Below the pieces are notes generated by a model. The model made no database searches. It had not been told where the DNA came from and worked only from the letters and a program-made list of their open reading frames with translations. From positions 64,684 to 96,683 of the forward strand of contig JBHLPL010000001.1 in NCBI GenBank assembly GCA_048939465.1: a stretch of 32,000 nucleotides of DNA, given 5' to 3'. The stretch is from Promethearchaeota archaeon. GTDB taxonomy: Archaea > Asgardarchaeota > Odinarchaeia > Odinarchaeales > JBHLKK01. Both the position numbers and the translations under genes were made by a program. Below are positions 3,203-22,213 of this stretch, piece by piece; the first letter of the stretch is position 1, and the number at the start of each line of letters is the position of its first letter.

Positions 3203-3817
3203 TCATGACCTGCTTTCCTTTAGTTTCTTAATTTCTTTTTCCAGCTCTGAGACCTTCTTCTCCGGTGCTGGAAGAGCAATACCTGTTTCAACAGTTATCT
3301 CCTGATCGATTTCGGTCAACGTTTTTTCAATTTCCTTATCACTAATCTCTTGCGAAACCGTGATTTCGAGTCCTGATTCAGCGATCTCTTTCGACACCTC
3401 AAATTGCTGTAGCTGACCTTCAACTTCTTTAATCAATTTGGCTATCTTTGGTACCTTCACAGCGTTCTTAAGTCCCCCAAGGACGTTACGGAGACTACCT
3501 AATATTTTGGACAAATCAGTAACAGATTCGCTTTGTCTGAGTTTTACAATTAGTCCCTCTATGGTCAATCTGTAGTTGTCAATGCCAACTGCCCACTTCT
3601 GAAATTGCAGGTAATGCTTTGCGTACGTCTTTGCAGCCTCATTATTGCCCTTGATACGTTGAGTTCGAGCTTTAGTACGGCTCTTGTCGCCTTCTCTTTC
3701 CAGTTGCATCCTTTGTCTATCGAGTTTCCGTGTGAGCAAATCCAACTGAAAAATGGCCTTCTCAAGCCTTTTTCTCTTAGACCCCCCTAACCAGTCAAAC
3801 AAACGGCCTAACGACAA
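3203..3817 (-). CDS. ESCRT-III subunit, Vps2/Vps24/Vps46 (CHMP1-3) class
   Basis: N-terminal amphipathic helix (LGRLFDWLGG), basic helical hairpin (LDRQRMQLERE...GNNEAAKTYAK), acidic C-half and terminal MIM1-like LEKEIKKLK. Divergent from vps4. TTG start after GAGGTG. Confidence 0.85.
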   Translation of the reverse strand: MSLGRLFDWLGGSKRKRLEKAIFQLDLLTRKLDRQRMQLEREGDKSRTKARTQRIKGNNEAAKTYAKHYLQFQKWAVGIDNYRLTIEGLIVKLRQSESVTDLSKILGSLRNVLGGLKNAVKVPKIAKLIKEVEGQLQQFEVSKEIAESGLEITVSQEISDKEIEKTLTEIDQEITVETGIALPAPEKKVSELEKEIKKLKESRS

Positions 3818-3978: not shown

Positions 3979-5142
3979 TTGGGATTGATGTCTGATAAGC
4001 TGTTCAAATACGCCACCCAGATGGCGAAGGAAGCTGTGAAACTTGACAAGCAAGGCAAACAGAAGCTGGCTGTACAGAAATATATTCATGCGGCCGATAT
4101 CTTGATGAGGTTTCTGAAATTAACCGAGAATCCCGCACTGAGAAAAGTATGTTATGAAAAGGCGGAGCAGTATGTGCAAAGAGCTAAAGAACTACAAGGT
4201 GTAACACCAGGTCTGCCGGCAGTATCAGAAAAAGCAGCGGGGAAAGCGCTGACCAAGGAAGATCAAGCCCTCCAAGAAGCAATCTCGGATACCATAATCA
4301 CTGAGAAACCAAGTGTTGAATGGGAAGACGTAGCAAATCTAGAGACGGCAAAACAAGCCTTGAGAGAGGCTGTTATCTTACCGATGCTCAGACCAGATAT
4401 TTTTACTGGTGCAAGGGAACCTTGGCGTGGATTATTGTTGATCGGACCACCCGGATGTGGAAAAACACTGCTCGCAAAAGCTGTGGCGAACGAATGCAAC
4501 GCAACATTCTTCAGCGCTGACGCAGCCTCTTTGGTTTCAAAGTGGCTGGGAGAATCGGAAAAACTTGTAAGCACATTATTTACCGTTGCACGAAGTAGCT
4601 CCCCTTCCGTTGTGTTCATCGACGAAGTGGATGCTTTGGCAACAGTTAGATCGGGTGATGAGGTTGGAGGTGAGCGGAGAATGAAGACGCAGCTATTAAT
4701 AGAAATGGATGGGGTTCGAAAACGAAAGGGAGAGCAAGTAGTAGTTCTTGGCGCCACGAACAGGCCATGGGATCTTGACCCGGGTTTTCGTAGAAGGTTC
4801 GAAAAAAGAATTTATGTGCCCCTTCCTGATAAGGAAGGCCGTCGCGAGATATTTAAGATTCACGTCAGAGGAATTGAAATAGCTTCAGATGTTGATTTTG
4901 ATGAACTAGCGACTCTTACTGAGGGATACTCCGGCTCAGATATTGCGCTGATATGTAGGGATGCTGCCATGATGCCAATACGTGAACTGGATACCGCAGG
5001 CACGTTGACTAGGAAAGATATCAAAGTTCGATCGGTAGATCGTGAGGATTTTCTGAAGTCCATGAAAAAGGTTAGGCCAACTGTTTCACCAGACGAACTG
5101 GAGAAATACGAGGAATGGACCAAAGAATTCGCATCAGAATGA
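3979..5142 (+). CDS. vps4: Vps4 AAA+ ATPase with N-terminal MIT domain
   Basis: Three-helix MIT (AKEAVKLDKQG...YVQRAKEL), WEDVA, GPPGCGKT, FIDEVD, GATNRPWDLD..RRFEKRIYVPLP, C-terminal helix PTVSPDELEKYEEW. The real start may be ATG 3988. Confidence 0.95.
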   Translation: MGLMSDKLFKYATQMAKEAVKLDKQGKQKLAVQKYIHAADILMRFLKLTENPALRKVCYEKAEQYVQRAKELQGVTPGLPAVSEKAAGKALTKEDQALQEAISDTIITEKPSVEWEDVANLETAKQALREAVILPMLRPDIFTGAREPWRGLLLIGPPGCGKTLLAKAVANECNATFFSADAASLVSKWLGESEKLVSTLFTVARSSSPSVVFIDEVDALATVRSGDEVGGERRMKTQLLIEMDGVRKRKGEQVVVLGATNRPWDLDPGFRRRFEKRIYVPLPDKEGRREIFKIHVRGIEIASDVDFDELATLTEGYSGSDIALICRDAAMMPIRELDTAGTLTRKDIKVRSVDREDFLKSMKKVRPTVSPDELEKYEEWTKEFASE

Positions 5143-5156
5143 ACTGGTGATATATA

Positions 5157-5903
5157 TTGTCGGTAAGGGAAAAGCCACGTAAAAAAGCTGGGAAGTCTCA
5201 AAAGGAAGAAACTGACAAGAAGGAGCGAATCAAAGAAGAGCTTGAGGAACTCAAGGAAGAAGTTGAAACAATGGTGGAGGCAGAAGAAGCTGAGACAATA
5301 GAAGAGGTTGAGAAAATCCAAGAGCCTAGCGCTAGGCAACTTCCGAAGGCGGTTGCTGAGGAAATCTCCTCTGAATTGGAGAAGATCTGTAACTTATATG
5401 AATGGGTTGCAAATCCTGAACAAGTCAGATGGATGTATTGGATGCCCTCCAATAAAGAGCATATTGATTCATGGAGAGACGAATGGGCTGATTTCTTGTT
5501 TCAATGGGCCCGAGCAAAAATCCTTCATATAGTAACACTGGTCTTGCTTATGGGTGAACACCCATTTGATAAGTTATCTCCAAAGGTGGATTCGCTGAGA
5601 GTTATTATGAAAACCCTAGCTGAGAAGGATCTTGCTGAATTCTTGGATAATAAAGAAACCAGATTGCGAATATACTGGAGGACTCTTAATGAGTGGGCAG
5701 AAATAATCTATAACTGGGCACTCAATACCGGAAGAATGGATATAAGTGTTTTTGATGTTATTAATGACAGAGGGGAAAAGTGGGGCTTTCACACGCTGCC
5801 AGCGAAAGAAATTAGACTCATCTTCAGGATTATGGTAGAGCGTGGGTTGGCCCGTTGGATGGACGAGAAGAGAGGCCATATTGAGATAAGAGTAGACTTT
5901 TGA
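5157..5903 (+). CDS. vps25: ESCRT-II Vps25 (EAP20)-like tandem winged-helix protein with charged N-terminal extension
   Basis: Vps25-type Trp pattern (SWRDEWADFL; LAEFLDNKETRLRIYWRTLNEWAEIIYNW; FHTLP..I...MVERGLARW). 14 bp after vps4; TTG start after GGTGA. Confidence 0.85.
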   Translation: MSVREKPRKKAGKSQKEETDKKERIKEELEELKEEVETMVEAEEAETIEEVEKIQEPSARQLPKAVAEEISSELEKICNLYEWVANPEQVRWMYWMPSNKEHIDSWRDEWADFLFQWARAKILHIVTLVLLMGEHPFDKLSPKVDSLRVIMKTLAEKDLAEFLDNKETRLRIYWRTLNEWAEIIYNWALNTGRMDISVFDVINDRGEKWGFHTLPAKEIRLIFRIMVERGLARWMDEKRGHIEIRVDF

Positions 5904-10053: not shown

Positions 10054-10800
10054 TTATGAGTTTTTACTTGCCTTGCCTCCTAGCCCGGGAAAGTAGTACT
10101 TTTCTCCTCTTGAATAGCTAGGATCCATTCTGGTAACCTTGGCTTTTTTTAATGCCTCTAATGCTCTTTTGACTCTGGTCTCGTTCCACCCGGTTTTCAC
10201 CATGATTTCCTCAGGAGTCGTCCAGCCTTTCTCGCTTGCAATGTTCAATATCTCATTCTGATCATTTCCCAGCTCCACAGAAATGAATTGAACAACCTTC
10301 ACGTCTGACTTCAACTTCATGATTCCTGGTATCATATCTTCTTCTTCCATTTTCCTTATGGCCTTCATAACATCCTCTACTGATATCTTTCCCTTGATCA
10401 TTCCTGTGTTGACCAATAAAACAGCTTCTGGAATTGTCATAATTCCACCTGTTTCTTGCCTTCTCATCAGGGCTCTCTGATAAAGAAGCAAACCCAGTTT
10501 CTCATGATCAACTTTAGTTCTGAAAAATCCCTTCCTCACCACATCCTCTTCTCTCACAATCTGGGTAATAATAGCGCTTTTGGGAATACCGAACTTCTTT
10601 CTAATCTTTTCAACTTCCGAGCGGAACTCGGGATTTATGTCGAGCAGGATTCCATACTTCTTGACTATCTCTACCAGCTTTTCCCTCGTACGCTTGGCCA
10701 TTTCAAGCTCGCTTGCCATATTCTGAAGTCTCAACTCAACGCCTTTTTCTTCCAAGGCTCGTTTTGCTCTCATCTCCTTCTCAATTTCGTAAAGACCCAA
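10054..10800 (-). CDS. vps22: ESCRT-II Vps22 (EAP30/SNF8)-like protein
   Basis: Vps22-type N-terminus (MGLYEI...INPEFRSEV..IRKKFGI), GGIMTIPE winged helix, GWNETRVKRAL..L and D.SYSRGEKYYFPG ending. TTG start abuts the vps28 stop. Confidence 0.9.
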   Translation of the reverse strand: MGLYEIEKEMRAKRALEEKGVELRLQNMASELEMAKRTREKLVEIVKKYGILLDINPEFRSEVEKIRKKFGIPKSAIITQIVREEDVVRKGFFRTKVDHEKLGLLLYQRALMRRQETGGIMTIPEAVLLVNTGMIKGKISVEDVMKAIRKMEEEDMIPGIMKLKSDVKVVQFISVELGNDQNEILNIASEKGWTTPEEIMVKTGWNETRVKRALEALKKAKVTRMDPSYSRGEKYYFPGLGGKASKNS

Positions 10801-11598
10801 TCAAACGCCCCCCTCGGACACTTCCTTCAGCTTAGCTTCAAAGTCTTTAAGCCATCTATCCGCTTGGAACCCAAGCCTTTCGGCCTCCTCTTCACTGACA
10901 GTCTCGCTTGGTTTTCGAGACTTAAGCCTGTCGCGCCATTCTTCAATCTCCTTGATAACCCAGTACTTCGCATTGAATCCAGGAAATCTCTTCATAATAC
11001 TCAGAAGCTCGTCTAGTCGTGGAACAAGCATATCAACTCTTGCTACGTCCTTCAGTCTTGTAAGATCCATCACAGTAATCAGATTCGTTGTGATGTCGAG
11101 CGTTTTAGAAGCGACTGTTGCAGGAGAAGCTGTCAAAATCTCTAGAAGAGCGCCTGTCTCACCCTCTGCAAGTTTTAGTTTATTGATCGCCAAAGGAAAC
11201 TCCCTTACTATTCCTTCATCTTCCAAGAACTTGGCAACGTCGATATTCAGTTCTTCCAATCTGCCTTTAGCCTTGAATGCGCCTGTCATTAGCGCTCGGA
11301 CTTGACGCTTGTACATTGCTGGCTCTATTCTGGCTTCCTTGAAACTCTCGATTATGGATTCCAGTGTTGCGATGCATGCATAGAGTTCTGCCTGTTTGTC
11401 AAGAACGTATTTTCTCTGGGAAGGACTGAGCCTCTGAAGTGCTTCAGACTCCCCCCCTCGAACCGACTCGCTTAGTGTCGATTTGTATTCCGACGCAGTT
11501 GAGCTGTTTTCAAGGGGCTCTTTTGGGGCTTCTTCTTTTTTCTTTTCCTTTCTTTTCTTTTCTGCCTCGGATGTTTCACGCTTTCTGGTTACTTCCAT
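10801..11598 (-). CDS. vps28: ESCRT-I Vps28, full length (N-terminal core plus C-terminal four-helix bundle)
   Basis: QAELYACIATLESI..F....I....Y N-domain motif; ITVMDLTRL...VDMLVPRLDEL...EWRDRL...EEAERLGFQ C-domain motif. ATG 11598 follows GGTGA SD (ORF track starts at 11607). Confidence 0.9.
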   Translation of the reverse strand: MEVTRKRETSEAEKKRKEKKKEEAPKEPLENSSTASEYKSTLSESVRGGESEALQRLSPSQRKYVLDKQAELYACIATLESIIESFKEARIEPAMYKRQVRALMTGAFKAKGRLEELNIDVAKFLEDEGIVREFPLAINKLKLAEGETGALLEILTASPATVASKTLDITTNLITVMDLTRLKDVARVDMLVPRLDELLSIMKRFPGFNAKYWVIKEIEEWRDRLKSRKPSETVSEEEAERLGFQADRWLKDFEAKLKEVSEGGV

Positions 11599-11628
11599 CC
11601 CGTTCACCAGCGAGTGAGAAAAAGAATA

Positions 11629-12384
11629 TTACTTCTTCAGTTCCTCAAGCTTCTTGGTAACCAAATACAAGTCTTTCTTATAACGTTTATAGAGCTTACC
11701 ATACTCTACGTCGCTGATTTCGCCCGATTCGTACTTCATCTCGAGGTTTTGCAGGAGGTCCTCAGTTGCGATCTTTTCACCCTCAAGGTCCAATATCCTC
11801 TCTTCTTTTGGGTCGCCAAGTTTGGGGGCCTCATGTTGGCCTGAAAGCGAAATGCTTCGAGCGTCCATCGCTCCGCGTATTCTGGCCAGTTCCTCGTCCT
11901 TTTTCTGCATAACATCTCTCAATCTTAACGTTTCTCTCTCAAGGTTCAGAACCTTTGATTGGAGTTGTCTAACGCCTTCCGAAACCGCGGCTGTAGGTTC
12001 CAGAGCAGTTGTGGCTGTTGCGGGGGCAGAAACATATATGGGTCTGGGCGGCTTACGTGCAAAGAGACCTTTCAGTGTATTGACAACCTGATGGATGTGA
12101 TATTCTGGACGCCATTCGGAGAGTATTTTCAGGCTAACTTCTCCGGATTGCCTATTGATCTGGGGGTGATCTGTCGGCGTAATCATTTTCACACTAGGCG
12201 CTGACCTTGGAAAGTCATCAGGTAATGCTATCTCAACTTCGAATCTCCTCTTCGCGTGTTGTCCTCTACCCGGTATGGAACCTCTCCAAAGCCTCAGGTT
12301 TCCTCTGACTGGAGTAAATTCCTGCGCTCGTCTGTACATGAGTTGGGCTTCTTTAGCAACAATCAATTCAGCATCTTCAGACAA
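11629..12384 (-). CDS. vps23: ESCRT-I Vps23/TSG101-like protein: UEV domain, linker, coiled coil, steadiness box
   Basis: UBC fold (LPDDFP..PSVKMITPTDHPQI..SGEVSLKIL..W.P) with Ser in place of the catalytic Cys. Coiled coil LQSKVLNLERE; steadiness-box-like ATEDLLQNL...GEISDVEYGKLYK. TTG 12384 follows GGAGG (ORF track starts at 12426). Confidence 0.85.
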   Translation of the reverse strand: MSEDAELIVAKEAQLMYRRAQEFTPVRGNLRLWRGSIPGRGQHAKRRFEVEIALPDDFPRSAPSVKMITPTDHPQINRQSGEVSLKILSEWRPEYHIHQVVNTLKGLFARKPPRPIYVSAPATATTALEPTAAVSEGVRQLQSKVLNLERETLRLRDVMQKKDEELARIRGAMDARSISLSGQHEAPKLGDPKEERILDLEGEKIATEDLLQNLEMKYESGEISDVEYGKLYKRYKKDLYLVTKKLEELKK

Positions 12385-12480
12385 GTGATTGCCTCCCTTT
12401 TGGGTTTTTTCAAGAATAATTATCAAGAACAGACATAAAAACTCTTGCCATATTGTGCTTCTCAGAAGGAAAAGGAATGA

Positions 12481-16780: not shown

Positions 16781-17638
16781 ATGATTCATTCGGTTTATGT
16801 AATCCGAAGGACAGGAGAATGCCTATTCTCCAGAGTATATGATAAGAACGGAATCGACGAAGCCCTAATATCCGGCTTCTTAAGCGCTCTACAATCTTTC
16901 ATAAATGAAATCAGTGGAGATTATGTAAGGACTCTGAAAACTGGAAATGTGAAATTTGTCTATAATTTACTGGATGATCTGATATTCGTATTCTGCGTCG
17001 ATCTAGAAGAAGATGAGGAAAAACTGAGAAAGAAGATAAATCTCACTCAGAGTGTCTTCGTAAGGAGATTTGGCAGCATAATAGAAGGCTGGAATGGTCA
17101 AACCAGCATCTTCGAATCCTTCAATGTAACAGTAGATGACATTGTTACAGATCTCGTAAAGGTATCCGTAATTGGATTTGGGGGTGTCGGTAAGACGACT
17201 CTCCTCAAGCTTATTCTAAGGGAAGAAGTTCCCGTACAACACATTCCAACAATAGCGGTTGATATCAAAGATCTTAACGGTGTAAAATCCCCGGCAAAGG
17301 TGGTCATGTGGGATTTTGCTGGACAACAGCGTTTTGAATCCCTTTGGGATGTGATGATTAAAGGCTCAGACGTTATTCTAATTGTTACGGATTCTTCCAT
17401 GTTAAATATAGTAAAGACCAAGAAAAAAATCATCTCCCTCATTAAAGAGCATAATCCCGGCGCGAGAGTTATTGCTATTGCAAACAAACAAGACCTTCCG
17501 AATTCGATAAAGCCAAGAGCAATTAGTGACCTTCTAGGCGTACCGGTTTATGGAATTGTCGGCATAGACCCTTCAAATCGAGGGCAATTGCTTGAGATAA
17601 TAGGCGATACTGTTAATAGCTGGCTAGAATATTCATAA
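16781..17638 (+). CDS. Longin domain fused to an Arf/Rab-like small GTPase
   Basis: Longin pattern MIHSVYVIRRTGECLFSR...LISGFLSALQSF...FVY...LIFVFCVD; G1 GFGGVGKT, G2 IPTI, G3 WDFAGQ, G4 NKQD. Confidence 0.88.
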   Translation: MIHSVYVIRRTGECLFSRVYDKNGIDEALISGFLSALQSFINEISGDYVRTLKTGNVKFVYNLLDDLIFVFCVDLEEDEEKLRKKINLTQSVFVRRFGSIIEGWNGQTSIFESFNVTVDDIVTDLVKVSVIGFGGVGKTTLLKLILREEVPVQHIPTIAVDIKDLNGVKSPAKVVMWDFAGQQRFESLWDVMIKGSDVILIVTDSSMLNIVKTKKKIISLIKEHNPGARVIAIANKQDLPNSIKPRAISDLLGVPVYGIVGIDPSNRGQLLEIIGDTVNSWLEYS

Positions 17639-17684: not shown

Positions 17685-18437
17685 ATGTTTCTTGTGGGGG
17701 CCGTAGGAGACATTCATGGACCGAAGTATCTATACCTGTTTAAGAATGGACTAAGCTCACTAAAAGGAAATGTCTTAGACGATATTAATTGTCTATTTTT
17801 TGCCGGCGATATCATATCAAAAGGCCATACTGAAGATCTCCAAGCGGTAATAAGGACCATCGATGACTTTGAAGTTAGATGTCCTTTGATCTCCTGCTTC
17901 GGTAACGAGGAGTATGAAGAAACGCATAACATAATACGAGAGAAATTCGGCAGTAGGGTTACATTCCTGGATGATGAGTCTTTTGTCTTGAACCTGAAAG
18001 ACGATAGGACACTAGGGATTGTGGGATCTAAAGGGAGTCTAGATCGACCCACATGGTGGCAAAGTAGGAATATTCCAAACATCCTTCAGATATATTCTCA
18101 GAGAATCAGTGTAATAGGTGGTCTCCTTCAGAAATTGAAGACTGATTTCAAGATCTTACTCCTACATTATGCTCCGACTTTCAAAACATTAGGTGGCGAA
18201 GGAAGAACTTTTTACCAGCAATTAGGAAGCAAAAAGCTTGAGACTATAATCAGCAGAAGCAAACCGGACGTAGTTATCCATGCCCATGCCCACAATGGAC
18301 GCAGATTTGCCCTTTTGGGTGAGATTCCTATATACAACGTTTCTCTTCCTCTTACCCGGACAATCACAGTCATAAAACTACCGGGATTTGCTATCTCCGA
18401 TTCCTCGGAAGATAATAAGGAAGAATATACATCATGA
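17685..18437 (+). CDS. Calcineurin-like metallophosphoesterase (Icc-related)
   Basis: GDIHG, AGDII, GNEE, HYAP and HAHAH metal-binding motifs. Confidence 0.9.
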   Translation: MFLVGAVGDIHGPKYLYLFKNGLSSLKGNVLDDINCLFFAGDIISKGHTEDLQAVIRTIDDFEVRCPLISCFGNEEYEETHNIIREKFGSRVTFLDDESFVLNLKDDRTLGIVGSKGSLDRPTWWQSRNIPNILQIYSQRISVIGGLLQKLKTDFKILLLHYAPTFKTLGGEGRTFYQQLGSKKLETIISRSKPDVVIHAHAHNGRRFALLGEIPIYNVSLPLTRTITVIKLPGFAISDSSEDNKEEYTS

Positions 18438-18716: not shown

Positions 18717-20522
18717 ATGAAGACTGTGAGAATCTGCAATTTTTGTGGAAGCAGAGAAGCAACTCATTATTGTGAGGAGTGTGGAGCCTCATTCTGCAGC
18801 AGGTGCGCAAGAAAGAAGAAGATCCAAATTAGCATATGTGTAAATTGCGGTGCATCTGTTGACAAACTCAGAAAACAGAGTAGTATTACGGCCTGCAATG
18901 ACTGTAATCCGTCAAGCACAAAATCTGCGATAAAATACATAACCCTATGCCCTGATTGCTCTTCAAAGACGGTAGTACGCATCAAGAAAAAAAACCATGA
19001 TTTGTTGATCAAACTCAAAAGTGCAGTTTCAAGTCTTATATCCGGCTACTATATCCTAAAACAATTTTTGGCTGAAGTGAATACCGTACGGCGCAGGATA
19101 GTAGCAATGAGGTATTATGGATTTAGACAGTATCCTGAACTCGAAAAGACATTGATTGCTGTCTATTCTGAAGTTCATACGTTGGGTCAGAACTTTGTCA
19201 ATACAGTATTCAAAACATTACAGGGAGTAGATTCTGAATTGCTTGTGGTTCTAAGGAAGAGACCATGGGACTCCAAAGATTTTCCCTCGGTAGAATCTCT
19301 GACAGAACAACTTAGAAAAGATGGACAGATGACTCAGAAAGACTTGATGAACAGACTAACTGATTTAAGACAGCTATTTATCGACCTTCTTCCTCTAATT
19401 GGGTCTCTGGAGTACTTCAGACAAGTGTACGATAGCATAGGGGAGCATTTAATCCTTGATAAGTATGAGAGAATCATCTGTGCGTTTAGCAAGGTGTCTC
19501 TGTCATCGAACTCATCCAAGCGGAGCAAGAATAACGGAACCTTGGTTCTTACAAACCGCAGAATAGTTCTTCATCAACAAGCAAAGGGAAAAGGGGCTTT
19601 CAATGTAATTGGGGCAAGATTGACTGATTTAAACTCCTATCATGTCGATGAAACAGATGGAAGAATAACTCTGGAAACAACGAATGGTAGAACGGAGTTC
19701 CTTGTTTCACAGAATGCTGCGAGTTTATTCAAGAGATCTCTAGAGGTAACCGACCGATACGACGGGAATTTAGTAGATTTGGATCGCTTAAATCGTCTCA
19801 TTAATATCCAGTGGGTTTCTTCGGAGTTATATCGTCTGAATAAGAAACTGCAGCTAGAGGTTCTCAATGTGCTGGGGGAGAAACCCAGACTTCTCGATTC
19901 AGCAGTTGTTGCTACATCTGTCTTTAGAGAGTACTCAAATGACACTCCTGAGCCACCGCAGGAGGGGCCAAATGTCTCGTTTGGGATCAAGAAAGACGAT
20001 CCCAAAGAGGCCATGAATTCGGAATCTTATAAGGGAACCAAGCCGGCAGGCGTTATTCGTCGCATTGTGAATTTATTTAAGAATAATAGAAATCGTGAAT
20101 TATCCGATCTAGTTCTGGAAATTGGCAGAAAGAACAGAACCAATACGGGCGGGATGGTTCCTTTAGCTGAAGTGTACCTATCGATAAAAGAACTCAGACC
20201 TAATCGGAACATCGATGTTGAGGAAGTTGAAAAAGCAATTGAAACACTTAAAGAAAAAGGACTTATAGTTGATTTTAGGGAACATAACTCTGGAATAAAA
20301 GTTGTTGAGTTCTTTCCATTAGAGTTCAGTAGTGATAAGAATACTGTTATAGATTTGGCAGCAGAAAGAGGTCACCTGACGCTTGAGGATGTCATACGCA
20401 ATACGGGATGGTTAGGGGTCAGAGCTGCAAGAGCACTTAAAGGGTTAGAGAAAATTGGGATAGCCAAGCTTGACCCTACATATTCTAGGGGAAAGCGTTG
20501 GTATTTCCCATACCTGAAATGA
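18717..20522 (+). CDS. Vps36-like ESCRT-II subunit: Cys-rich Zn-finger region, coiled coil, PH/GLUE-like domain, EAP30/Vps36 winged helices
   Basis: Six CxxC pairs in the first ~80 aa; NGTLVLTNRRIVL PH-like strand pair. The C-terminal ~140 aa align by eye with the Vps22 paralogue (TGGM.P..E; GIKVVEF; GW...RA.RAL..L; DPTYSRGKRWYFP vs DPSYSRGEKYYFP). Confidence 0.8.
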   Translation: MKTVRICNFCGSREATHYCEECGASFCSRCARKKKIQISICVNCGASVDKLRKQSSITACNDCNPSSTKSAIKYITLCPDCSSKTVVRIKKKNHDLLIKLKSAVSSLISGYYILKQFLAEVNTVRRRIVAMRYYGFRQYPELEKTLIAVYSEVHTLGQNFVNTVFKTLQGVDSELLVVLRKRPWDSKDFPSVESLTEQLRKDGQMTQKDLMNRLTDLRQLFIDLLPLIGSLEYFRQVYDSIGEHLILDKYERIICAFSKVSLSSNSSKRSKNNGTLVLTNRRIVLHQQAKGKGAFNVIGARLTDLNSYHVDETDGRITLETTNGRTEFLVSQNAASLFKRSLEVTDRYDGNLVDLDRLNRLINIQWVSSELYRLNKKLQLEVLNVLGEKPRLLDSAVVATSVFREYSNDTPEPPQEGPNVSFGIKKDDPKEAMNSESYKGTKPAGVIRRIVNLFKNNRNRELSDLVLEIGRKNRTNTGGMVPLAEVYLSIKELRPNRNIDVEEVEKAIETLKEKGLIVDFREHNSGIKVVEFFPLEFSSDKNTVIDLAAERGHLTLEDVIRNTGWLGVRAARALKGLEKIGIAKLDPTYSRGKRWYFPYLK

Positions 20523-21157: not shown

Positions 21158-21805
21158 TTACTCTTTTTCTTTTTCCTCTTCTGGTATGTCTTCTTTAAGC
21201 CCTTTCTTAATATCTTCAAGTTCCTTCCGTATTTTGTCCTTCTTCTTTTCAGCGACAGCCTTCTCTTTTTCGGTGGGAATCTCAGGTAACTCTTCTTCTA
21301 TGGCCACTTCCTCTTGAAGTTTTGCTAACTCCCTCTCTACGTCAATGTCTTCGCCTTCATCCAAAGCTGTGGCACTTAACATCTCACTGGTTTTCTCTAT
21401 CTCATCAACCAGTTGTTCAGTTTTTAGCATAACTTCAGTAGCTTTCTCACTTGACATAAGTCTTCTTGCTTCTTCAAGTTGTTCAAGACCAACTTCAAGG
21501 GCACGTCCCATGTCGGCAGTATCTCTAGCAGTCTCGATCATATCAATAACATCTTCTAGGCTGCCTACCTGTCTATGATAACGATTCATCCATGTGGTAT
21601 ATCTTTTCCATTTTCGAAGATGTGTCCTTGCCCCATCTGTGTTTCCTTGCCTTACAAGCTCTCTTGCTCTCTGCTTGCTTTCTCCTGCCTTTCTTTCAAA
21701 TCCACGAACTCTGAGTGTCATCTTGTTGATTGTTGCACGCATTTCTGTAACTGCTTCGTCTCTGCTTTCCTTTTTCTTGGGGAATAGCTTCCTCAGAAAA
21801 CCCAA
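21158..21805 (-). CDS. snf7: ESCRT-III subunit, Snf7/Vps20/Vps32/Vps60 (CHMP4-6) class
   Basis: MGFLRKLF amphipathic N-helix, AR.LVRQGN.DGAR..LRK.K, LEDVIDMIETA...DMGRAL, acidic DIDVERELAKLQEE and LPEIPT. TTG start after GAGGTGA. Confidence 0.88.
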   Translation of the reverse strand: MGFLRKLFPKKKESRDEAVTEMRATINKMTLRVRGFERKAGESKQRARELVRQGNTDGARTHLRKWKRYTTWMNRYHRQVGSLEDVIDMIETARDTADMGRALEVGLEQLEEARRLMSSEKATEVMLKTEQLVDEIEKTSEMLSATALDEGEDIDVERELAKLQEEVAIEEELPEIPTEKEKAVAEKKKDKIRKELEDIKKGLKEDIPEEEKEKE

Positions 21806-21916: not shown

Positions 21917-22213
21917 TCATTCTTTCTTATCGTCTTTGCCTATTTCCCTTATTAGCGGCTTTTCCTCCTTCAGTCCGAGAATTCTGAACTTGGGGTATTG
22001 CTTTTCCAATTGTTCTCTCAGTCTTTCTTTATTTACGTTTCCGTGCGTTTCAACATTAACAATCGGTCTGTCGCCTTCGTATGTTACTTGAATCGGATAA
22101 CCGCCTGCACCGCCAAAATCGTCGTTCAGAAATCTCTTTTCTAAGGCCTCAGATAATCCGAAATCTTCATCAAATGGATCAGAAATGGTTCCCTTTTTTT
22201 TCTTTTTGCCTAA
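21917..22213 (-). CDS. Small hypothetical protein (~98 aa) with no canonical start codon (not in ORF track)
   Basis: Hand translation: (L)GKKKKKGTISDPFDEDFGLSEALEKRFLNDDFGGAGGYPIQVTYEGDRPIVNVETHGNVNKERLREQLEKQYPKFRILGLKEEKPLIREIGKDDKKE*. Composition is protein-like (beta-beta-alpha). A G7 SD-like run lies 6 nt before the TTA codon. Confidence 0.65.
   Translation of the reverse strand, partial: LGKKKKKGTISDPFDEDFGLSEALEKRFLNDDFGGAGGYPIQVTYEGDRPIVNVETHGNVNKERLREQLEKQYPKFRILGLKEEKPLIREIGKDDKKE

Follow-up and report, generated by a model that had tools for sequence, protein, structure and literature searches.

The gene analysed here, from a Promethearchaeota archaeon, encodes a protein of 601 residues with the domain order of eukaryotic Vps36. 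It is likely this lineage's orthologue of Znr_CC_PH_SB, in which tandem winged helices (wH-wH) of the Vps22 type now stand in place of the C-terminal coiled coil and steadiness box. The Vps36-like order most likely came from an independent fusion and is not ancestral to Vps36. Znr_CC_PH_SB (asCOG cog.011556) is an Asgard family with a presumed membrane role, and is presumed to be an ESCRT-I component (Makarova 2024, PMC10936438). No Vps36 homologue has been found in Asgard archaea, and Vps36 is held to have arisen during eukaryogenesis (PMC9192718). Asgard archaea are said to manage with Vps22 homodimers (PMC9192718); Vps22 was described as a homodimer in Heimdall and Loki and as a monomer in Odin (Hatano et al. 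2022, PMC9192718). The lineage studied here is related to Odinarchaeum, the archaeon with the monomeric Vps22. The parts of the fused gene are as follows, with coordinates given in the window, i.e., the whole stretch of 32,000 nucleotides that was analysed.

18717..20522, plus strand: fused gene (P0001), ATG start, ORF of 601 residues with zinc module (Znr), helical bundle, PH domain, linker, and wH-wH
18717..18980, plus strand: zinc module, residues 1-88, six CxxC pairs forming about three Cys4 sites
18981..19439, plus strand: three-helix bundle/coiled coil, residues 89-241, AF2 helices 89-133, 141-180, and 186-241 with pLDDT of about 90-95
19452..19751, plus strand: PH domain, GRAM/GLUE-like, residues 246-345, seven strands and a C-terminal helix
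19773..19937, plus strand: post-PH helices, residues 353-407, AF2 helices 353-362, 366-386, and 395-407
19938..20078, plus strand: disordered linker, residues 408-454, pLDDT below 50 over residues 403-454
20079..20519, plus strand: tandem winged helices WH1 and WH2 of the EAP30/Vps22 type, residues 455-601, from Pfam EAP30, BLASTP, and Foldseek

The ATG start is kept in the orthologues, which were found in two further genomes (G044 and G053) and in two Logan contigs, with 64-77% identity and a shared gene order. Their ORFs are uninterrupted, 601-610 residues long, and flanked by the same neighbours, the copy in G053 being cut by the contig end. The fusion was seen in one genus only (three genomes plus the two metagenome contigs, which share one gene order); it was not found in the sister family or in the remaining Asgard genomes searched. 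Word-based protein searches, with the full-length protein or its residues 455-601 as query, gave nothing beyond three orthologue clusters. Identity among the orthologues is highest in the wH-wH part (81-88%) and lowest in the linker (42-63%).

The initial annotation had placed this gene in a differentiated Vps22/Vps36/Vps25 set; of the other ESCRT genes, the genome does carry an ordinary Vps22, a single Vps25, and a Vps28. The relevant neighbours in the window are these.

5157..5903, plus strand: Vps25, no second copy found in the genome, PF05871 E 2.8e-12; presumed partner
10054..10800, minus strand: canonical Vps22 (P0002), Pfam EAP30 profile positions 2-211, E 3e-16; presumed partner or paralogue
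21158..21805, minus strand: Snf7/ESCRT-III gene, convergent with the fused gene, Pfam Snf7 E 7.5e-20

The canonical Vps22 matches Asgard Vps22 proteins over its full length. Outside the window, 2.4 kb upstream, there is a gene for a ubiquitin-like protein. A gene for an SSB-like OB-fold protein lies between the fused gene and Snf7, both here and in the two independent Logan contigs. In two genomes with a canonical Znr_CC_PH_SB gene (G074 of family f6 and G022 of family f12), that gene borders a cluster of Vps22, Vps25, Vps4, and Snf7 and runs convergently with Snf7. The fused gene keeps the usual place of its parent family, convergent with Snf7.

Residues 1 to about 370 are homologous to Znr_CC_PH_SB, with matches in 215 of 301 Asgard genomes (E down to 1e-39). 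Relatives of the family were represented by 75 clusters among 1.84 billion proteins, with E down to 3e-31. All six CxxC pairs that had been reported are present exactly as listed (CNFC at residue 7, CEEC at 19, CSRC at 27, CVNC at 41, CNDC at 60, and CPDC at 78), and each of the 12 cysteines is conserved in at least 90% of 63 family members. The module is beta-rich and was modelled confidently by AF2. The cysteine spacing would fit a two-zinc cross-brace followed by a one-zinc ribbon. Across the family, this region gives weak Pfam matches to B-box, double-zinc-ribbon, and TFIIB-ribbon profiles; the proposed B-box likeness amounts to no more than a Pfam match below the threshold (E 1.3e-3). The coiled coil announced from the sequence corresponds to the three long helices of residues 89-241 in the AF2 model, and these are homologous to the CC part of Znr_CC_PH_SB.

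The fused protein shares with Znr_CC_PH_SB the three conserved zinc sites, the helical bundle, the PH domain, the start of the following coiled coil, and the place of the gene within the ESCRT cluster, where it is convergent with Snf7. It differs in that the C-terminal coiled coil and steadiness box are absent, their place being taken by the linker and the Vps22-type wH-wH. Matches to canonical family members mostly stop at query residues 350-390. The post-PH helices are a remnant of the Znr_CC_PH_SB coiled coil, where homology to the parent family ends; in AFDB matches the same residues, 353-407, align with the N-terminal helices of SNF8. Among 63 relatives, Pfam found a PH domain in 27, a weak Vps23_core/steadiness-box signal in 10, and EAP30 in three, all three from the fused lineage. 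In P0001, Pfam gave no Vps23_core signal, with EAP30 in its place. No second Znr_CC_PH_SB member was found in the source genome, which is 91% complete. A search of that genome with the steadiness-box profile PF09454 gave no match, and the same profile gave none in the control genomes. The asCOG cog.002441, which has three zinc ribbons, a steadiness box, and two winged helices, was considered as the family and dropped, as it is of the Vps25 type according to the legend in PMC10936438.

The segment NGTLVLTNRRIVL, for which a PH-like fold had been suggested, falls inside a confidently modelled PH domain whose seven strands and helix span residues 253-345. The PH fold of the middle region is borne out by the model, by VIA, and by Foldseek. 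The mean pLDDT of the AF2 model was 84.5 for the whole protein, with clear domain limits, and 86.4 for the domain model. VIA Z scores against PH/GRAM domains reached 12.9 (MTMR2 PH-GRAM), with 10.8 for the EAP45 GLUE domain. In Foldseek, Lam6 matched with E 2.2e-4 and the yeast Vps36 GLUE domain (2cay) came at rank 2 with E 2.8e-4 and TM 0.72; GLUE is tied with other GRAM-like PH domains in the fold searches. The GLUE profile PF11605 scored 22.0 bits (E 1.8e-4), which is below its cut-off of 24.1 bits, and bPH_3 gave E 7e-3. The profile of the family had five matches in the PDB, the sole eukaryotic PH domain among them being yeast Vps36 2cay (E 0.046). Among the named Atlas clusters the highest-placed one is a fragment of Vps36 (score 0.83), and it serves as a lead only. 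A single-sequence PDB search with residues 230-400 returned only chance matches to antibodies.

The C-terminal part had been described as paralogous to the Vps22 gene at 10054..10800, and BLASTP agrees (37% identity over 127 residues, E 7e-28). Pfam EAP30 (PF04157) matches residues 460-585 with E 1.8e-11 and 44.6 bits, above the cut-off of 26.8. This match covers only profile positions 90-217 of 219, which indicates that the N-terminal part of Vps22 is missing; the replacement of the Vps22 N-terminus seen by the initial annotation is thus upheld, positions 1-89 being unmatched. Compared with Asgard Vps22 (cog.002769; HeimAB125_14050 and Odin Vps22; PMC9192718), the fused protein has the same wH-wH core with 33-42% identity, but it has no SB-like N-terminal helical hairpin and sits on its own long branch in the tree. 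With the winged helices as query, Foldseek matched chains A and B of 3cuq/2zme, human SNF8 (2zme_A) giving E 5e-8 and an rmsd of 2.1 over 147 columns. In a phmmer search of the PDB they scored 31-32 bits against SNF8/Vps22 versus 23 bits against Vps36, and with a profile of the fused clade Vps22 alone was found at E <0.01. Canonical Asgard Vps22 likewise scores higher against eukaryotic Vps22 than against Vps36.

An ML tree of non-eukaryotic EAP30 domains placed the fused winged helices on a long branch outside the clade (100/100) that holds the genus's own Vps22. They grouped with 387-residue paralogues of family f16, a position that may reflect long-branch attraction. A recent duplication of the genus's own Vps22 as the source of the winged helices is not favoured by this tree, yet a tree in which the two are kept together is not rejected in the AU test (p 0.112; 0.098 when the long branches are left out).

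The initial annotation had read the protein as a differentiated Vps36-like subunit. The Vps36-like layout of PH domain, helices, and tandem winged helices stands: in a whole-model search of 550,129 Swiss-Prot AlphaFold models, ranks 1-9 were all eukaryotic Vps36 (E 1.7e-11 to 1.6e-9), query residues 246-597 aligning with residues 10-379 of 386 in the match. The fused protein shares with Vps36/EAP45 (2cay, 2hth, 2dx5, 3cuq_B) the order of GRAM-like PH domain, helices, and WH1-WH2, and the alignment takes in nearly all of human Vps36. Like yeast Vps36, it carries zinc fingers in the same polypeptide and, like Vps36, it occurs alongside a Vps22 and a Vps25 encoded separately. It differs from Vps36 in an N-terminal extension of some 245 residues that comprises the zinc module and the helical bundle, in zinc sites that lie at the N-terminus instead of within the PH domain and are not of the NZF type, in an unsplit PH domain, in winged helices nearer to Vps22 by sequence, and in a distribution suggestive of an independent fusion. 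Prometheoarchaeum MK-D1 has another Asgard protein that combines two winged helices with an N-terminus unlike that of Vps22; named "VPS36", it is regarded by its authors as the Vps36 counterpart. According to the preprint, it has an N-terminal OB fold and no PH or ubiquitin-binding domain (bioRxiv 10.1101/2025.11.01.685982).

A reading of the protein as a differentiated Vps36 orthologue is not supported. Our sequence comparisons suggest that orthology to Vps36 is improbable, because the N-terminus belongs to Znr_CC_PH_SB, the winged helices are nearer to Vps22, and the fusion is confined to one genus. If it were an orthologue, an ancestral Asgard Vps36 would have survived nowhere but in this lineage and in eukaryotes. 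What speaks for such a survival is that the best fold matches of the whole protein are all Vps36, aligned end to end, together with the weak but repeated GLUE signals (PF11605, the family profile against yeast Vps36, 2cay at rank 2, and the Atlas cluster). We nevertheless find it improbable: the fusion occurs in a single genus among the Asgard genomes searched, the orthologues of the N-terminus form a family with a steadiness box at its end, the scores of the winged helices are higher against Vps22 than against Vps36, just as for canonical Asgard Vps22, and the GLUE match is not separated from other GRAM-like PH domains. The winged helices and zinc ribbons could also suggest a nucleic-acid-binding or regulatory protein that merely resembles EAP30 and has no link to ESCRT, since both features are common in DNA-binding proteins; weak Pfam matches to MCM_WH_arc and TFIIB ribbons and the neighbouring SSB-like gene would agree with this. 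Such a protein is very hard to reconcile with an EAP30 match above the Pfam cut-off, with 37% identity to the Vps22 of the same cluster, and with a gene that lies inside the ESCRT cluster and whose parent family has ESCRT links in further genomes. In a fragmented metagenome-type assembly of 152 contigs, one might suspect that two adjacent genes were joined by an error of assembly or gene calling. Such an error can be practically dismissed here, as the ORF has no internal stop codons and recurs uninterrupted at 601-610 residues, with the same neighbours, in two independent Logan assemblies as well as in G044 and, truncated where the contig ends, in G053.

A stand-alone adaptor that does not pair with Vps22 deserves more weight, although we think it rather unlikely. 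Its winged helices would bind Vps25 or ESCRT-III directly, thereby bypassing or replacing the hand-over from ESCRT-I to ESCRT-II that is made by the steadiness box of its relatives. The presumed place of the parent family in ESCRT-I (PMC10936438) is in line with this, and so are the position of the gene beside Snf7 and not Vps22, the absence of the Vps22 N-terminal helices, and the monomeric Vps22 of the related Odin lineage (PMC9192718). Conservation within the protein is highest in the winged-helix core, and this core has the full Vps22 WH1-WH2 fold, which is compatible with either pairing with Vps22 or acting alone. A complex prediction with Vps22 and residues 346-601 of the fused protein gave a score of 0.02 and makes no call either way.

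We favour a lineage-specific domain swap, which would covalently tie a membrane- or ubiquitin-reading module to ESCRT-II and so make the fused protein, as we propose, a convergent analogue of Vps36. The PH domain, and possibly the zinc module too, would read a membrane signal or a ubiquitin/ESCRT-I signal, and the flexible linker would pass it to the winged-helix core. This core may stand in for one Vps22 in an ESCRT-II-like assembly and recruit Vps25 and then ESCRT-III, so that the protein would work like eukaryotic Vps36 by convergence. As a counter-point, the missing Vps22 N-terminal helices (EAP30 positions 1-89) may contribute to pairing of the Vps22/Vps36 type. In other Asgard archaea the same job may run in trans, with Znr_CC_PH_SB using its steadiness box to pair with Vps22 at the SB-like N-terminus of the latter. 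We raise as a speculation, unlikely yet conceivable, that the PH domain of Znr_CC_PH_SB was the source of the Vps36 GLUE domain and that Vps36 came from a like fusion with a duplicated Vps22 core, the function being split in most Asgard archaea over two proteins that pair through SB-like helices. If true, the fused gene would be Rosetta-stone evidence for a partnership of the adaptor with Vps22.

The finding adds an archaeal protein with the full Vps36 layout, PH domain and winged helices, where surveys state that Asgard archaea lack Vps36 (PMC9192718). Even if convergent, it indicates that an arrangement like that of Vps36 can readily arise from components which Asgard archaea already have. 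The logic of the fusion links the widespread Znr_CC_PH_SB adaptor to ESCRT-II, and the protein offers a simple soluble-domain system for the study of how archaeal ESCRT is targeted to membranes or ubiquitin.

A fused protein of 601 aa is encoded by the ORF at 18717..20522 (+), whose start codon is ATG. The six CxxC pairs described in the initial annotation were all found, at residues 7, 19, 27, 41, 60, and 78, and the proposed C-terminal paralogy to the genome's own Vps22 (10054..10800 (-)) was confirmed by BLASTP (37% identity over 127 aa, E 7e-28). In Pfam, EAP30 was detected above the cut-off on residues 460-585, covering profile positions 90-217 only; residues 246-290 gave a sub-threshold match to the Vps36 GLUE family PF11605 (E 1.8e-4, 22.0 bits against a cut-off of 24.1), and the matches to a bacterial PH family (bPH_3) and to B-box were sub-threshold as well. 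The ORF is also present in two sampled genomes of the same genus, G044 and G053 (where it ends at the contig end), and on two Logan contigs from independent metagenome assemblies (L106 and L107), with 64-77% identity, and this recurrence rules out an assembly chimera. Among these orthologues the tandem winged helices are 81-88% conserved, the zinc module, helices, and PH part 55-76%, and the linker 42-63%; conservation thus tracks the domain limits.

The whole protein was modelled with AF2 on an 84-row alignment (mean pLDDT 84.5), giving the following parts:

Residues 1-88: zinc module, beta-rich (AF2 model)
Residues 89-241: three long helices (AF2 model)
Residues 253-345: seven strands and a C-terminal helix (AF2 model)
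Residues 353-407: further helices (AF2 model)
Residues 403-454: disordered stretch (AF2 pLDDT below 50)
Residues 457-601: two winged helices (AF2 model)

The middle region, which had been proposed to adopt a PH fold, is clearly PH, and modelled alone it reached a pLDDT of 86.4. With VIA, its matches were MTMR2 PH-GRAM (Z 12.9), BBS5 (12.0), Lam6 (11.9), and mouse EAP45 GLUE (10.8); Foldseek placed Lam6 at rank 1 (E 2.2e-4) and the yeast Vps36 GLUE 2cay at rank 2 (E 2.8e-4, TM 0.72). From these ranks the domain is a GRAM/GLUE-like PH, with GLUE among the best fold matches of the model, yet not singled out. Searched against the PDB, the sequence profile of the PH family gave only five matches below E 10: yeast Vps36 at E 0.046 and again at 1.4, two bacterial PH domains, and a glutathione synthetase (E 8.2) that is likely a chance match, a suggestive but marginal outcome.

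When the whole model was compared with the PDB, human and yeast Vps22 came first (E 5e-8) and Vps36 next (E 1e-5). Against the full-length Swiss-Prot AlphaFold models, every match at ranks 1-9 was a Vps36, with rat, Arabidopsis, and fission yeast among the species (E 1.7e-11 to 1.6e-9), with query residues 246-597 aligned to residues 10-379 of the 386-aa protein, and SNF8/Vps22 followed from E 7e-9. The TM-scores to the Vps36 models were low, as expected for domains joined by flexible linkers. The fused protein and Vps36 have the order PH, helices, WH1, WH2 in common end to end, and together with the nine top ranks this upholds the Vps36-like architecture first suggested from sequence.

To trace the N-terminal part, residues 1-450 were used as query; of the 301 Asgard genomes sampled, 215 gave homologues (20-27% identity, best E 1e-39), ORFs of 500-780 aa whose match mostly runs from query residue 5 to about 290-390. 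When 1.84 billion representatives were scanned exhaustively with HMMER, 75 clusters came up. In Pfam, 27 of 63 relatives carry PH, with B-box or zinc ribbons too, 10 of 63 a weak C-terminal Vps23_core/steadiness box, and only three EAP30, all of them from the lineage studied here. The winged-helix part, searched with local phmmer against all 83 collected proteins, matched only the EAP30 proteins of this lineage and the genome's own Vps22. The relatives match the description of cog.011556 by Makarova et al. (PMC10936438), named Znr_PH_CC_SB or Znr_CC_PH_SB, a presumed ESCRT-I component with a membrane-associated PH domain, "likely ancestral in Asgardarchaeota". The pairing of helical bundle and PH is kept throughout this adaptor family. 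Residues 89-345 (window 18981..19751) also align in Foldseek to RhoGEF DH-PH modules (ARHGEF2, FGD1/3/4, p115, Vav1; E 7e-6 to 1e-4), probably a generic resemblance of long helices followed by PH.

No other Znr_CC_PH_SB member was found in the genome (91% complete). The same query found no adaptor in any sampled genome of families f2, f13, f17, and f20, one of which is the sister family (0 of 4 genomes, each at least 93% complete); the adaptor is widespread, yet several losses or replacements have clearly taken place. The canonical gene of two other Asgard families faces Snf7 in convergent orientation and marks the edge of a Vps22/Vps25/Vps4/Snf7 cluster. In the window and both Logan assemblies, a metallophosphoesterase gene precedes the fused gene, and an SSB-like OB gene and Snf7 follow on the opposite strand. 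From the homology, the sole membership, and the Snf7-convergent position, we read the fused gene as a positional and sequence orthologue of Znr_CC_PH_SB whose tail would have been swapped. At two loci (L104, G074:C1:360500-368500; L105, G022:C133:1-8000) the canonical gene closes a compact cluster in which Vps22 lies on the strand opposite to Vps25 and Vps4, followed by one or two Snf7 genes and then the adaptor, convergent with those; from the listed coordinates, a distance of about 3.3 kb separates Vps22 from the adaptor in at least seven f6-family genomes.

The ESCRT genes and neighbours in the window are:

3203..3817: Snf7, first of two
3979..5142: Vps4
5157..5903: Vps25
10801..11607: Vps28
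11629..12426: UEV/E2-like gene
16781..17638 (+): longin-Arf-like GTPase (Fuz_longin_1 and Arf), directly upstream of the fused gene
17685..18437 (+): metallophosphoesterase, directly upstream of the fused gene, kept there in at least one Logan contig (L106)
20568..21116 (-): OB-fold gene, SSB-like (PF21473, E 1.4e-16), flanked by the fused gene and Snf7, likewise in the two Logan contigs
21158..21805: Snf7, second of two
21917..22213 region: small ORF upstream of Snf7; L106 has a gene call of 98 aa here (4395-4691 (-)), and L107 a truncated call of 59 aa in the matching position, where that contig ends

The whole genome (1.96 Mb, 91% complete) holds two EAP30 genes only, the fused gene and Vps22, and one Vps25. 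On the same contig, 2.4 kb ahead of the window and shortly upstream of the ESCRT region, there is a ubiquitin-like gene (L103, G000:C138:62120-62317 (-)), whose match to PF00240 exceeds the cut-off with 28.2 bits.

Against eukaryotic Vps22 the winged helices reach 31-32 bits, compared with 23 bits for Vps36, and a profile of the four fused proteins matches Vps22 only; canonical Asgard Vps22 likewise prefers eukaryotic Vps22 over Vps36. They may be a fast-evolving local duplicate of Vps22, or a paralogue of older or transferred origin. An ML tree of 75 winged-helix domains, Asgard only, gives the fused clade a long branch (1.36) and places it outside the 100/100-supported clade of the genus's own Vps22, the sister family, and four other families, which does not favour the local duplicate; the fused clade's weak join to 387-aa paralogues of another family carries a long-branch warning. 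When the fused clade is constrained to group with the genus's own Vps22, 17.6 log-likelihood units are lost, with an AU p of 0.11 (14.3 units and 0.10 after long-branch removal), values that leave room for a local duplication. Second EAP30 paralogues, with N-termini unrelated to Vps22 and without Pfam match, were seen at L061/L062 (G058, G041; 386-387 aa), L063 (G111; 805 aa, with a long coiled coil), and L064 (G048; 220 aa), and it seems that Asgard families combine ESCRT-II cores with many different front ends.

Vps36 was not found in Asgard archaea by Hatano et al., who proposed homodimers of Vps22, the Odin Vps22 being a monomer (PMC9192718). The MK-D1 "VPS36" of a 2025 preprint (bioRxiv 10.1101/2025.11.01.685982) carries an OB fold at its N-terminus in place of the PH domain of Vps36; because of that OB fold, the OB protein in the ESCRT block studied here may not be accidental. 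In the literature, no report was found of a PH and winged-helix ESCRT-II protein in archaea. What is new is a domain architecture made from two known Asgard families and restricted to one genus.

We propose that the PH domain, and perhaps the zinc module, would read a membrane or ubiquitin/ESCRT-I cue; the ubiquitin-like gene upstream of the window is noted in this connection. The linker would tether this reading module to the winged-helix core, which is predicted to take a Vps22-like position and recruit Vps25, then ESCRT-III. Asgard Vps22 carries an SB-like N-terminus (PMC10936438), and other Asgard archaea may use a non-covalent version of the link, between the adaptor's steadiness box and that N-terminus. 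The fusion is of interest mainly as a natural experiment in the possible origin of Vps36 and as a handle on the Znr_CC_PH_SB adaptor. If the non-covalent pairing is true, the fusion would be a Rosetta stone for the pairing of adaptor and Vps22.
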